Source of the DNA: a virus
Taxonomy: Duplodnaviria; Heunggongvirae; Uroviricota; Caudoviricetes
IMG/VR virus record: IMGVR_UViG_2648501498_000019
Reading direction: 5' to 3' (one strand)
Length of the DNA: 4,425 bases
Both the position numbers and the translations under genes were made by a program. The notes under the pieces were generated by a model, which saw only the letters and a program-made list of their open reading frames with translations, did not search any database and had not been told where the DNA came from. This document shows, in pieces, positions 1 to 4,425 of the stretch. How positions within the stretch are numbered: the first letter of the stretch is position 1; every line of letters starts with the position of its first letter.

Positions 1-86
1 AGGCCGCACGAATATAACGGTGGGTTGCCACCAAATGAATCGGAAAACCGATACTGGAAAAACTCTAAAGCGGTGGCCAGTTTTTG

Positions 87-242
87 TTGACCACTACAAA
101 GGGATATCCGAAGCGCGACGATTCCAGCCGCAGAATTGATGTTCCGTATGACGGATATGAAATCAAGACAATCACACATCCGCACTTCGGTGATAAACCG
201 GTAAAGGTGTTCGCGATAAAGGTGAATATCGGCAATGAATAA
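87..242 (+). CDS. Hypothetical small protein (about 51 aa), start uncertain (TTG at 87 or 84; no in-frame ATG)
   Basis: Frame is open from 69 to the TAA at 240-242 and translates to a protein-like sequence (...RIDVPYDGYEIKTITHPHFGDKPVKVFAIKVNIGNE). A hairpin/U-tract follows immediately at 246-273. Same orientation as xis/int. The only start candidates are TTG, with a weak GGTGG 10 nt upstream. Confidence 0.3.
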   Translation: MTTTKGYPKRDDSSRRIDVPYDGYEIKTITHPHFGDKPVKVFAIKVNIGNE

Positions 243-245
243 CAA

Positions 246-273
246 TCCTCGCACTCGCGGGGATTTCTTTTAT
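246..273 (+). terminator. Candidate intrinsic terminator (7-bp stem with one G-U pair, 4-nt loop, U-rich tail)
   Basis: tcctcgc (246-252), loop actc, gcgggga (257-263), then tttcttttat (264-273), lying 4 nt after the stop codon at 240-242. Confidence 0.45.
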
Positions 274-314
274 CTGAACTCGCTACGGCGGATTTTGTTT
301 TATGGAGATGATAA

Positions 315-482
315 ATGCACTTCCGAGTCACAGGTGAATGGAATGGAGAACCATTCAACAGAGTTATCGAAGCAGAGAACATCAATGACTGCTATGACCA
401 CTGGATGATATGGGCGCAGATAGCACATGCAGACGTAACCAATATTCGAATTGAAGAACTGAAAGAACACCAAGCCGCCTGA
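315..482 (+). CDS. Hypothetical 55-aa phage protein (MHFRVTGEWNGEPFNRVIEAENINDCYDHWMIWAQIAHADVTNIRIEELKEHQAA)
   Basis: ATG at 315 is preceded by GGAG (304-307) at 7-nt spacing; TGA at 480-482. Same strand as the downstream genes and packed tightly against the next ORF. It is below the length cutoff of the supplied ORF track. I do not recognise the product. Confidence 0.6.
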   Translation: MHFRVTGEWNGEPFNRVIEAENINDCYDHWMIWAQIAHADVTNIRIEELKEHQAA

Positions 483-510
483 TGGAGGTTTTTTTTATTG
501 GAGACAAGAA

Positions 511-855
511 ATGTCAGATTTGTCTATGAAGGTTTTGAAATGGCAATCGACTGGCGATGTTGGCATCAGTAGCGCAACTCTTGCCTCAATCGCATGTGGC
601 CTGAAAAAGAATATCTATGGTCATCACTTCGGCGCTCCCCATGACGCAGCAGACTTCCGACGATGCGTTGCACTTGTTGAGAAGATTCCAGAAATCAGAG
701 ATTCATTCGACAAGGTTGCAAAGCGCGTTCCGGCATTCAAAGGCATCCTCAACGAATGGGATTCCCTCGTTGCTCTGTTGAAGTCTGAAATGAAGATACA
801 CGGAAACAAAGCACCAGAGACTTACAGGAGAATCAGCGAGTTACGAAAGGACTAA
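511..855 (+). CDS. Hypothetical 114-aa phage accessory protein, function unknown
   Basis: ATG at 511 with GGAG (500-503) 7 nt upstream; TAA at 853-855. In the pL-operon orientation upstream of xis. Neither its length nor its position matches lambda ea8.5 as I recall it (93 aa, gene end about 296 bp from xis). Confidence 0.75.
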   Translation: MSDLSMKVLKWQSTGDVGISSATLASIACGLKKNIYGHHFGAPHDAADFRRCVALVEKIPEIRDSFDKVAKRVPAFKGILNEWDSLVALLKSEMKIHGNKAPETYRRISELRKD

Positions 856-914
856 CCACAGCCTCACACTCGATGAGGCCTGTTCATGGCTCAATGATAT
901 CCAGACCTACCATC

Positions 915-937
915 GCCGCATCAATGCGGCTTTTCTT
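915..937 (+). terminator. Candidate intrinsic terminator between the 114-aa ORF and xis
   Basis: Perfect inverted repeat gccgca (915-920) / tgcggc (925-930) with loop tcaa, followed by ttttctt (931-937). Confidence 0.5.
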
Positions 938-949
938 GCGTGTAATTGC
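936..949 (+). promoter_or_regulatory. CII activator box (TTGC-N6-TTGC) of the pI integrase promoter
   Basis: ttgc gtgtaa ttgc at 936-949, just upstream of the xis ATG (962). In lambda, CII-activated pI starts transcription inside xis so that Int is made without Xis. Confidence 0.75.
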
Positions 950-961
950 GGAGACTTTGCG

Positions 962-1180
962 ATGTACTTGACACTTCAGGAGTGGAATGCACGCCAGCGA
1001 CGCCCAAGAAGCCTTGAAACAGTTCGTCGATGGGTGCGCGAATGCAGGATATTCCCTCCTCCGGTTAAGGATGGAAGAGAGTATCTGTTCCACGAATCAG
1101 CGGTAAAGGTTGACTTAAATCGACCAGTAACAGGTAGCCTTTTGAAGAGGATCAGAAATGGGAAGAAGGCGAAGTCATGA
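962..1180 (+). CDS. xis: Excisionase Xis (72 aa)
   Basis: Translation MYLTLQEWNARQRRPRSLETVRRWVRECRIFPPPVKDGREYLFHESAVKVDLNRPVTGSLLKRIRNGKKAKS matches lambda Xis as I recall it. GGAG 8 nt upstream of the ATG. Overlaps int by 23 bp as in lambda. Confidence 0.95.
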   Translation: MYLTLQEWNARQRRPRSLETVRRWVRECRIFPPPVKDGREYLFHESAVKVDLNRPVTGSLLKRIRNGKKAKS

Positions 1181-2228
1181 GCGCCGGGATTTACCCCCTA
1201 ATCTTTATATAAGAAACAATGGATATTACTGCTACAGGGACCCAAGGACGGGTAAAGAGTTTGGATTAGGCCGAGACAGGAGGATAGCAATCACTGAAGC
1301 AATACAGGCCAACATTGAGTTATTTTCAGGACACAAACACAAGCCTCTGACAGCGAGAATCAACAGTGATAATTCTGTTACGTTACATTCATGGCTTGAT
1401 CGCTACGAAAAAATCCTCGCCAGCAGAGGAATCAAGCAGAAGACTCTCATAAATTACATGAGCAAAATTAAAGCAATAAGGAGGGGTCTGCCTGATGCTC
1501 CACTTGAAGACATCACCACAAAAGAAATTACGGCAATGCTCAGTGGATACATAGACGAGGGCAAGGCGGCGTCAGCCAAGTTAATCAGATCAACACTGAG
1601 CGATGCATTCCGAGAGGCAATAGCTGAAGGCCATATAACAACAAACCCGGTCGCTGCCACTCGCGCAGCAAAATCAGAGGTAAGGAGATCAAGACTTACG
1701 GCTGACGAATACCTGAAAATTTATCAAGCAGCAGAATCATCACCATGTTGGCTAAGACTTGCAATGGAGCTGGCTGTTGTTACCGGGCAGCGAGTTGGTG
1801 ATTTATGCGAAATGAAGTGGTCTGATATCGTAGATGGATATCTTTATGTCGAGCAAAGCAAAACAGGCGTAAAAATTGCCATCCCTACAACATTGCATGT
1901 TGATGCTCTCGGGATATCAATGAAGGAAACACTTGATAAATGCAAAGAGATTCTTGGCGGAGAAACCATAATTGCATCTACTCGTCGTGAACCGCTTTCA
2001 TCCGGCACAGTATCAAGGTATTTTATGCGCGCACGAAAAGCATCAGGTCTTTCCTTCGAAGGGGATCCGCCTACCTTTCACGAGTTGCGCAGTTTGTCTG
2101 CAAGACTCTATGAGAAGCAGATAAGCGATAAGTTTGCTCAACATCTTCTCGGGCATAAGTCGGACACCATGGCATCACAGTATCGTGATGACAGAGGCAG
2201 GGAGTGGGACAAAATTGAAATCAAATAA
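1158..2228 (+). CDS. int: Tyrosine integrase Int (356 aa), lambda type
   Basis: Translation matches lambda Int as I recall it (MGRRRSHERRDLPPNLYIRNNGYYCYRDPRTGKEFGLGRDRR...REWDKIEIK). Catalytic residues sit in the expected contexts (R in GQRVGDL, H-x-x-R in FHELRSLSAR, H...Y in LLGHKSDTMASQY). GAGG 7 nt upstream of the ATG. Confidence 0.97.
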   Translation: MGRRRSHERRDLPPNLYIRNNGYYCYRDPRTGKEFGLGRDRRIAITEAIQANIELFSGHKHKPLTARINSDNSVTLHSWLDRYEKILASRGIKQKTLINYMSKIKAIRRGLPDAPLEDITTKEITAMLSGYIDEGKAASAKLIRSTLSDAFREAIAEGHITTNPVAATRAAKSEVRRSRLTADEYLKIYQAAESSPCWLRLAMELAVVTGQRVGDLCEMKWSDIVDGYLYVEQSKTGVKIAIPTTLHVDALGISMKETLDKCKEILGGETIIASTRREPLSSGTVSRYFMRARKASGLSFEGDPPTFHELRSLSARLYEKQISDKFAQHLLGHKSDTMASQYRDDRGREWDKIEIK

Positions 2229-2320
2229 TGATTTTATTTTGACTGATAGTGACCTGTTCGTTGCAACAAATTGATAAGCAATGCTTTTTTATAAGGCCTA
2301 CTTAGTATAAAAAAGCAGGC
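2225..2320. other. attL (P' arm, common core, bacterial B site)
   Basis: Reverse-complement arm-type Int sites P'3 ataatgattt (2225-2234), P'2 attttgactg (2236-2245) and P'1 atagtgacct (2246-2255). IHF H' region tgcaacaaattgataagca (2262-2280). C' core site ctacttagt (2298-2306). 15-bp common core ttagtataaaaaagc (2302-2316, reverse complement of GCTTTTTTATACTAA). This is followed by ybhC upstream DNA. Confidence 0.9.
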
Positions 2321-2362: not shown

Positions 2363-3646
2363 GTGAACACATTTTCAGTTTCCCGTCTGGCGCTGGCATT
2401 GGCTTTTGGCGTGACGCTGACCGCCTGTAGCTCAACACCGCCCGATCAACGTCCTTCTGATCAAACCGCGCCTGGTACCTCTTCGCGCCCGATTCTGTCG
2501 GCAAAAGAAGCGCAGAATTTCGATGCTCAACACTATTTTGCATCCCTGACACCAGGTGCGGCAGCGTGGAATCCTTCCCCGATTACCCTGCCTGCGCAAC
2601 CTGACTTTGTTGTCGGCCCGGCGGGTACTCAAGGTGTAACGCATACCACGATTCAGGCGGCGGTAGATGCGGCAATTATCAAGCGTACCAACAAGCGCCA
2701 GTATATTGCCGTGATGCCTGGTGAGTATCAGGGAACGGTATATGTCCCTGCCGCTCCGGGTGGAATTACTCTGTACGGTACAGGTGAAAAACCGATTGAT
2801 GTGAAGATTGGGCTTTCCCTTGATGGTGGCATGAGCCCTGCCGACTGGCGTCACGACGTCAACCCGCGCGGCAAATATATGCCAGGTAAACCAGCGTGGT
2901 ATATGTACGATAGCTGCCAGAGCAAACGCAGCGACAGTATCGGTGTTCTCTGCTCTGCGGTCTTCTGGTCACAAAATAATGGCCTGCAACTGCAAAACCT
3001 GACCATCGAAAACACGCTGGGCGATAGCGTAGATGCGGGTAACCATCCGGCGGTGGCACTGCGTACTGATGGCGACAAAGTGCAGATCAATAACGTCAAC
3101 ATTCTCGGTCGTCAGAACACCTTCTTTGTCACCAACAGCGGTGTGCAGAACCGTCTGGAAACGAATCGTCAGCCGCGTACGCTGGTGACCAACAGCTATA
3201 TTGAAGGGGATGTGGATATCGTTTCTGGTCGCGGCGCAGTGGTGTTCGATAACACCGAATTCCGCGTGGTGAACTCCCGTACCCAGCAAGAAGCGTATGT
3301 GTTTGCACCGGCTACGCTGTCCAACATTTACTACGGTTTCCTCGCCGTAAACAGCCGTTTCAATGCTTCCGGTGATGGCGTGGCGCAACTGGGCCGCTCG
3401 CTGGATGTTGATGCCAATACCAACGGTCAGGTAGTGATCCGTGATAGCGCCATCAACGAAGGTTTTAACACAGCCAAACCGTGGGCTGATGCGGTGATCT
3501 CTAATCGTCCGTTTGCGGGTAACACCGGCAGCGTTGATGATAACGACGAAGTACAGCGCAATCTGAATGACACTAACTACAACCGCATGTGGGAATACAA
3601 TAACCGCGGCGTGGGTAGCAAAGTGGTTGCAGAGGCGAAGAAGTAG
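2363..3646 (+). CDS. ybhC: Outer-membrane lipoprotein YbhC, pectinesterase-like (CE8-like) fold, putative esterase/thioesterase
   Basis: GTG start with GGAG 6 nt upstream. Lipoprotein signal peptide with lipobox LTAC (MNTFSVSRLALALAFGVTLTACSS). Pectinesterase-like motifs are present (AVALRTDGD, GDVDIVSGRGAVVFD, QLGRSLD). Position next to attB(lambda) is as expected for ybhC. Confidence 0.93.
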   Translation: MNTFSVSRLALALAFGVTLTACSSTPPDQRPSDQTAPGTSSRPILSAKEAQNFDAQHYFASLTPGAAAWNPSPITLPAQPDFVVGPAGTQGVTHTTIQAAVDAAIIKRTNKRQYIAVMPGEYQGTVYVPAAPGGITLYGTGEKPIDVKIGLSLDGGMSPADWRHDVNPRGKYMPGKPAWYMYDSCQSKRSDSIGVLCSAVFWSQNNGLQLQNLTIENTLGDSVDAGNHPAVALRTDGDKVQINNVNILGRQNTFFVTNSGVQNRLETNRQPRTLVTNSYIEGDVDIVSGRGAVVFDNTEFRVVNSRTQQEAYVFAPATLSNIYYGFLAVNSRFNASGDGVAQLGRSLDVDANTNGQVVIRDSAINEGFNTAKPWADAVISNRPFAGNTGSVDDNDEVQRNLNDTNYNRMWEYNNRGVGSKVVAEAKK

Positions 3647-3662
3647 GAGCTGTTAACTATGT

Positions 3663-4425
<763 letters not shown>

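Follow-up and report, generated by a model that had tools for sequence, protein, structure and literature searches.

Read from left to right, the window, i.e., the whole analysed stretch of 4,425 nucleotides, opens with the terminal part of an IS3-family element and a gene stump. A terminator, ORFs of 55 and 114 aa and a second terminator follow, and then xis, int, an att core, ybhC and an IS1397-like element. This order identifies the window as the int-proximal part of a lambdoid prophage which is integrated at att-lambda in an E. coli-like chromosome. The prophage is 434/HK022-like, and its early-left operon (pL, "exo-xis") has its promoter-distal end in bases 1-860, where an IS911-like element cuts it off on the left. 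The gene xis (962..1180, plus strand) encodes a lambda-type excisionase of 72 aa (Pfam PF07825, E 4e-41) and int (1158..2228, plus strand) a lambda-type tyrosine integrase of 356 aa (Pfam PF00589 and PF09003), so that the lambda-type int/xis module described in an earlier, sequence-only reading of this DNA was borne out by Pfam. The junction between prophage and chromosome, next to ybhC, was read directly at 2301..2315 on the minus strand; its sequence GCTTTTTTATACTAA is presumably the lambda att core. Past it lies the chromosomal gene ybhC (2363-3646). The CII-dependent pI promoter region (936..967, plus strand) overlaps the start of xis; its position was carried over from the annotation of phage 434 (OL657226), and its sequence is conserved with lambda in the alignment. 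A search for RNA families with a permissive threshold yielded no Rfam match in the window.

The two ORFs which are the subject of this study are situated on the plus strand upstream of xis. The gene orf55 (315..482), the last gene of lambda's exo-xis region, encodes an acidic protein of 55 aa (pI 4.9), and ORF114 (511..855) a basic protein of 114 aa (pI 9.4), which is predicted to be all-helical. Their ribosome binding sites are GGAG motifs at 304-307 and 500-503, respectively, and terminator-like hairpins at 244-265 and 915-930 flank the pair, which are annotated as tL4 and t'I in records of phages 434 and HK022. In these points the sequence-only reading, which had listed a 114-aa ORF ending 107 bp from xis (106 nt were found here), a 55-aa ORF upstream of it, good RBSs and flanking terminators, was essentially correct.

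The left end of the window

Bases 1..98 (plus strand) are the right end of an IS911-like insertion sequence of the IS3 family, whose right inverted repeat ends with ...GACCACTACA at base 98. The last 29 codons and the stop codon of the transposase gene occupy positions 1-90, and bases 1-100 match, with 100% identity, an IS3-family element which 449 E. coli genomes contain. Its copy in E. coli 536 extends over L005:1350-2598 and possesses terminal inverted repeats of 27 nt; mapping of these repeats showed that the right one ends at a position equal to base 98 of the window, and that the IS end is intact. The junction between the IS and the DNA from base 96 onward was absent from every complete E. 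coli genome in the collection.

Adjacent to the element is a pseudogene (96..242, plus strand), the 3' remnant of a gene of the exo-xis region for a protein of 94 aa. It comprises about 48 codons and a stop codon, while the first 46 or so codons are missing from the copy at 84-242. The translation of the remnant matches residues 47-94 of WP_000002107.1 from the O26:H11 strain 11368, where the gene is intact, and positions 44-93 of phrog_625. In RefSeq the intact protein carries the name "ASCH domain-containing protein"; there was no match to the ASCH domain model, searches of the intact protein against Pfam-A (E<=0.01) and NCBIfam yielded no hit, and a comparison with PADLOC-DB was negative at E<=1. 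The ORF at 84-242, which starts with TTG and was listed with 52 aa, is a chimera of the IS end and the gene remnant and not a gene; a possible 51-aa ORF, as which it had been proposed earlier, thus turned out to be the 3' part of the 94-aa gene, interrupted by the IS3-family element. We infer that the upstream IS probably uncouples the block of stump, orf55 and ORF114, as well as read-through into xis and int, from pL in this strain; the region beyond the IS lies outside the window.

Identity and mosaic structure of the orf55-ORF114 segment

The ORF55 protein is 100% identical (55/55) to the product of lambda orf55 (lambdap35, NP_597778.1; lambda 29118-29285), and a comparison of the DNA showed five synonymous and no non-synonymous codon differences. 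In lambda, ea8.5 and xis are 295 bp apart, and most of this interval is taken up by orf55. A match to phrog_676 (E 6.6e-40, positions 1-55 of 55) places the protein over its full length in PHROG 676, the lambda Orf55 family. The gene is also placed like members of the lambda Orf55 family, with tL4 on one side and the t'I hairpin on the other, where the exo-xis region ends upstream of xis; this could be seen when it was aligned with lambda, 434 and a prophage of E. coli, and from the annotations. With a coverage of at least 80%, orf55 was detected in 2204 of the 5426 complete E. coli genomes (41%), and close homologues of the protein were confined to the Enterobacteriaceae in a word-indexed search.

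ORF114 is annotated under this name in phage 434 (GenBank M60848) and is also present in HK022. Its product is 100% identical to that of E. coli O26 Stx1a prophages (WP_001281774.1) and differs from ORF114 of 434 in one codon. It matches phrog_1229 (E 2.2e-51, positions 1-113 of 116) and belongs to PHROG 1229, the ORF114 family of 434 and HK022. Close homologues are enterobacterial; at the same coverage of at least 80%, the gene was found in 915 of the 5426 complete E. coli genomes (17%). The DNA of the window is 96-100% identical to that of HK022, 434, mEp phages and Stx phages: by megablast, bases 96-960 have 100% identity in O26 Stx1a-converting phages and 96.1% in HK022, and bases 218-960 have 98.4% identity in phage 434.

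The gene order of phage 434/HK022 is the same as in the window, namely tL4, ORF55, ORF114, t'I, xis and int, and ORF55 of 434 is identical to the copy in the window. All six features (as t-L4, ORF55, ORF114, t'-I, xis and int) are annotated in M60848; the HK022 record X51962 annotates tL4, and another record of 434 (OL657226; CPT_434_33/34) contains the RBSs, a terminator and the CII-dependent pI promoter. Phage 434 differs from the prophage of the window upstream of tL4: it has oppositely oriented genes for membrane proteins there, whereas the prophage of the window had the 94-aa "ASCH" gene, as in the O26 Stx1a prophages, here cut by the IS. Thus, orf55 and ORF114 are already known and count among the most frequent ORFs of E. 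coli prophages, even if both are labelled "hypothetical protein" in the genome records listed. The designation "unrecognised", which the sequence-only reading had given to this segment, does not apply to ORF114 and ORF55, being named features of M60848. Nor is the DNA upstream of xis unlike that of lambda, as had been supposed, since the ORF55 protein is identical to that of lambda and the homology extends from the tL4 hairpin through orf55. The reading had itself named identity of the segment with the reference lambda ea region as evidence against it; such identity was found for the orf55 part.

Details of the mosaic were obtained from a four-way alignment of the window, lambda, 434 and an E. 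coli prophage without ORF114. Homology with lambda starts at the tL4 intrinsic terminator (244..275, plus strand), which was found by a terminator scan; it has a 9-bp stem (244-265) and a T-rich tail, its predicted RNA fold has -13.1 kcal/mol (z -5.9), and the DNA in common with lambda has its left boundary there. In lambda, orf55 has the same flanks as in the window: the tL4 hairpin precedes the gene, and its stop codon is part of the t'I hairpin. Lambda and E. coli strain 377323_2f possess only one such hairpin around the stop codon, GCCGCCTGATGGCGG-T6, of -13.0 kcal/mol, and pI/xis follows it directly. In the window, as in 434 and HK022, about 0.44 kb are inserted at this hairpin relative to lambda, and orf55, which abuts xis directly in lambda, is separated from it by the ORF114 cassette. 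The left junction of the cassette is a weakened left copy of the t'I hairpin with a run of T8 (472..497, plus strand), which overlaps the stop codon of orf55; one base change (C>A, GGCGG to GGAGG) reduces its fold to -7.3 kcal/mol. The right junction is the t'I terminator (915..940, plus strand), which consists of a 6-bp GC stem (915-930) and TTTTCTT; its sequence GCCGCATCAATGCGGC-TTTTCTT has a fold of -10.5 kcal/mol. It was likewise found by the terminator scan; M60848 calls it t'-I, and OL657226 also lists a terminator here.

A trace of the former surroundings of the cassette is preserved between ORF114 and t'I. The 55 bp at 857..911 (plus strand) share about 91-93% identity with the beginning of the xis gene of P22-like phages, e.g., P22 and ST104, and represent a dead 5' fragment of a P22-type xis gene with codons 4 to about 21 (HSLTLDEAC...) and without a start codon, as a three-way alignment with P22 and Salmonella phage S135 showed. 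Phage S135 possesses a homologue of ORF114 with 62% identity, and 2 nt later an intact, unannotated P22-type xis. The remnant and the arrangement in S135 identify a P22-type int/xis module as the origin of the ORF114 cassette, from which it came into the lambda-type module together with a piece of xis. The match in the DNA had also prompted a comparison of ORF114 with the P22 Xis protein (116 aa) as a possible homologue, which was rejected (E 20); the match is due to the xis fragment downstream of ORF114.

Protein families and predicted structures

No Pfam, NCBIfam or PADLOC match was obtained with ORF114, ORF55 or the remnant, and all four matching PHROGs are labelled "unknown function"; the statement that no function could be assigned to these small proteins from sequence therefore stands. 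The literature search yielded nothing relevant for ORF114, the WP accessions or the PHROG numbers, and no experiment which assigns a function to Orf55 or ORF114 was found in it. The accessory-gene screen by Silas et al. does not cover the lambdoid exo-xis genes.

A profile search with ORF114 against 1.84 billion representatives resulted in 2772 clusters (of 50% identity) with a threshold of E<=1e-3; with E<=1e-10, 597 remained. The family spans phages of Proteobacteria and Actinobacteria and includes gp60 of Gordonia phage PhorbesPhlower and Clavibacter phage CN1A. Two alignments were evaluated, one with 67 diverse members, which are 28-59% identical to ORF114, and one with 83. The residues S20, P43, D45, D48, R51, C52 and W83 are invariant in both, and all of them are present in ORF114 of the window; W11, G18, S21, L55 and P60 are conserved to at least 90% in both alignments, and E93 likewise in that of 67 sequences. 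Most members have 105-135 aa. Longer ones carry N- or C-terminal extensions, which occur in small unrelated groups, one of them with a Cys-rich, zinc-ribbon-like motif; no known domain was found in these extensions, and no Pfam family in the 67 diverse relatives and 10 long fusion forms. Since the pI values vary widely within the family (median 5.7), its members do not show a shared mode of action based on charge. Distant relatives are encoded in runs of small early genes beside RecT/YqaJ, DNA methyltransferases, Lar, ParB_N and DUF5131.

The AlphaFold2 model of ORF114 (12.7 kDa) has a pLDDT of 72 and seven helices and is weak at residues 29-41. Many of the conserved residues, which form the motifs GxSS, PxDPxDFxRC and WD, lie close to the positions where helices are predicted to begin; their role may be that of structural helix caps, of a binding site, or of both. 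No solved structural relative of the model was found, a comparison of the ORF114 profile with PDB sequences gave matches at chance level only (E 0.5 or worse), and a Foldseek search of BFVD retrieved only uncharacterised members of the same family. An N-terminal helix-turn-helix was also considered, since GISSATL resembles HTH recognition helices; the idea was dropped, as no HTH model matched and the pI of the family is not consistently basic. The invariant polar residues of the model would suggest, tentatively, a conserved ligand or partner; in view of the conservation across phyla, the target of ORF114 would more likely be one which many hosts share than a strain-specific defence protein.

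Orf55 is a single-domain protein of 6.5 kDa, acidic throughout its family (pI 4.4-5.4), with an AlphaFold2 model of high confidence (pLDDT 90) and beta-beta-alpha-beta topology. The lambda protein was described by Donaldson (PMC8614690), where a resemblance was noted to the same three proteins as compared here, i.e., the RNA polymerase inhibitor Gp2 of T7, the Ung inhibitor p56 of the phi29 family and the epsilon subunit of Gram-positive RNA polymerase. From the resemblance to T7 Gp2, a modulation of RNA polymerase was proposed speculatively, and the placement of Orf55 at the beta' jaw is a speculative docking model; of the two functionally important arginines of Gp2, only one has a counterpart in Orf55 (PMC8614690). 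The sequence identities of Orf55 to the three proteins are 0-18%, and the structure matches which scored better than these were the unrelated proteins PurS and eL20. A passage in PMC9239242 cites a lambda segment with orf73, ea22, ea8.5 and orf55 as implicated in inhibiting the initiation of host replication. As a tentative suggestion for its mode of action, Orf55 most likely binds and modulates a host protein.

Expression and possible functions

On the available sequence evidence, orf55 and ORF114 are real, conserved protein-coding genes. A simple consensus scan, which a weak or non-sigma-70 promoter could escape, detected no sigma-70-like site in bases 1-1200, where 1.6 would be expected by chance, and the detailed annotation of 434 (OL657226) marks no promoter for the two genes either. 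As pI is located downstream of ORF114, ORF55 and ORF114 are absent from pI transcripts. Both circumstances, the lack of a detectable promoter and the location upstream of pI, suggest expression by read-through from pL. The two genes would then be expressed along with Xis and Int, and only when N-antiterminated transcription from pL passes tL4, as it should do early in an infection or upon induction, but not in the resting lysogen. ORF55 and ORF114 would accordingly be delayed-early products which are silent in the lysogen. The exo-xis genes have been described as the earliest pL transcripts (PMC8614690). Taken as a whole, i.e., as the end of the pL operon with the expression proposed here and the mechanisms suggested for the two proteins, this appears to be the best explanation of the locus, and we consider it rather probable.

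Other explanations have to be weighed against it. The small ORFs could represent cargo of the moron type, which benefits the lysogen or defeats host immunity, e.g., by anti-defence, superinfection exclusion or lysogenic conversion. The ORF114 cassette, like the morons of lambdoid phages (promoter, gene and terminator, expressed in the prophage), is a discrete, hairpin-bounded insertion between conserved genes in the mosaic exo-xis region, and it is present in some and absent from other, otherwise near-identical prophages. Genes for Lar and anti-RecBCD proteins are among the neighbours in related prophages, distant relatives of ORF114 occur near methyltransferase and Lar genes, and the topology of Orf55 is shared by the small acidic inhibitors AcrIE2, p56, Dmd and Gp2. 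However, of the classic moron layout only the terminator downstream was found (t'I at 915-930), but no promoter of its own; unlike morons, the cassette has the orientation of the pL operon and lies upstream of pI, and is therefore read as part of the operon. The search of PADLOC-DB with ORF114 and ORF55 (E<=1) was negative, the structural resemblances are weak and generic, and ORF114, conserved with invariant residues in phages of Proteobacteria and Actinobacteria, is unlike the narrowly distributed inhibitors and fast-evolving proteins of arms races. The presumed silence in the lysogen argues against morons for lysogenic conversion or exclusion; early, host-directed roles are compatible with it, and an anti-defence function expressed early may agree with the data. 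Cargo of this type is therefore regarded as unlikely. The sequence-only reading had pointed to a mosaic hotspot with moron, anti-defence and exclusion genes; the mosaic accessory DNA at the distal (exo-xis) end of the pL operon was confirmed, while a moron, anti-defence or exclusion character was left unsupported by the promoter scan, which detected none, the lack of matches to defence families and the conservation across phyla.

The association of ORF114 with excisionase genes raises the question whether it could be an accessory factor of site-specific recombination, i.e., a helper or regulator of excision which travels with these genes. Among 80 IMG/VR loci with close homologues of ORF114, the next downstream gene was of the excisionase type in 70. 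Lambda-type Xis accounts for 42 of these and P22-type Xis for 9; the other 19 have a protein of 66 aa, which matches phrog_66 ("excisionase and transcriptional regulator", E 3e-8) and, below the threshold, Pfam HTH_17. Of the ten remaining loci, six break off at a contig edge, 269 bp past ORF114. On the upstream side the neighbour varies, with orf55 in roughly half of the 80 loci. Moreover, the cassette carried along a piece of its former xis, and in phage S135 the stop codon of ORF114 is only 2 nt from the start of xis. Yet ORF114 is missing from lambda and from many prophages which possess the same xis/int; the protein shows no similarity to excisionases, neither by comparison with P22 Xis (E 20, see above) nor by a Pfam HTH or Exc domain; and a Pfam-recognised integrase or excisionase was found among the called neighbours of none of the seven distant family members examined. 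The adjacency could be explained equally well by a permissive recombination joint at the end of the pL operon, and such a joint is more likely than a functional link to excision, because lambda-type modules work without ORF114 and the seven distant members have no recognised integrase or excisionase as neighbour. A role in recombination thus seems improbable. Still further from what was observed is the notion that the ORFs are chance frames or decaying remnants without function, which may be considered highly improbable. It would suit the prophage, which is disrupted by an IS, the ORF at 84-242, which really is a remnant, and the many chimeric or truncated versions of ORF114 and ORF55 in the databases. 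But ORF55 differs from lambda in synonymous positions only, its five differences being all of this kind, and has a confidently predicted fold, ORF114 has thousands of homologous clusters with invariant residues, and both are preceded by canonical RBSs. For ORF55 and ORF114 the remnant explanation is refuted by this conservation; it is confirmed only for 84-242.

Of the uncharacterised prophage genes of E. coli, those for Orf55 and ORF114 belong to the most widely distributed, and they also occur in Shiga-toxin phages, where the exo-xis genes influence induction. Were a function established for either of the two, a gap of long standing in the map of lambda would be closed; the window itself provides no new handle for this. 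The point of broader interest is solely the ORF114 family, which is far wider than its annotation implies. In this very large family of phage proteins, which spans bacterial phyla, the invariant motifs GxSS, PxDPxDFxRC and WD may perhaps form a binding site for a ligand or partner which is used early in infection; as candidate roles, the protein could act as a sponge for immune signals, regulate a host machine of universal occurrence or assist in excisive recombination. This proposal is doubtful at present, but if it were true, ORF114 would define a new functional class of early phage proteins.

Origin of the ORF114 cassette

Directly 3' of the ORF114 stop codon, window positions 857-911 hold the 5' part of a P22-type xis. 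This fragment has no start codon and is dead; it shows that the source of the ORF114 cassette was a P22-type int/xis module. An intact P22-type xis of 116 aa (Pfam HTH_17, E 1e-8) was found in Salmonella phage S135 (2854-3204), where it starts 2 nt after orf39, the ORF114 homologue; the GenBank record of this phage has no annotation for it. Among 80 IMG/VR loci with close ORF114 homologues (L019-L098), 70 had an excisionase-type gene following the homologue. Such genes were of three kinds, encoding a lambda-type Xis, a P22-type Xis or a phrog_66 protein of 66 aa. The gene upstream was not constant across these loci.

Insertion elements and att core

Window positions 1-98 represent the right end of an IS911-like element of the IS3 family, which interrupts the prophage's 94-aa 'ASCH' gene; this junction was absent from all complete E. 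coli genomes in the collection searched. The insertion probably disconnected pL from ORF55, ORF114, xis and int. The intact 94-aa protein, encoded in strain O26:H11 11368 (L004, 5863-6147), is named 'ASCH domain-containing' in RefSeq. No match to it was obtained in Pfam-A or NCBIfam, and the label may stem from a weaker or different model.

The att core TTAGTATAAAAAAGC and a preceding inverted partial copy GCTTTTTTATA are located at 2281-2315, in the same arrangement as in the P' arm of lambda. The spacer is AGGCCTAC, compared to ATGCCAAC in lambda.

An IS1397-like element of the IS3 family, with its transposase on the minus strand, occupies 3679-4425 and is immediately preceded by a REP-like sequence (GCCGGATGCGGCGTAA) 3' of ybhC. 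Palindromic units of the REP type are known targets of IS1397. The ybhC-ybhJ interval of E. coli strain 377323_2f likewise holds an IS1397-family element.

The ORF114 family

The family of ORF114 (511-855; proteins P0161-P0387) comprises 2772 clusters at 50% identity, from phages of both Proteobacteria and Actinobacteria, and seven residues are invariant. Neither a model in Pfam nor a relative in the PDB was found for this family, and it has no function to its name. The size of this family is greatly understated by annotation.
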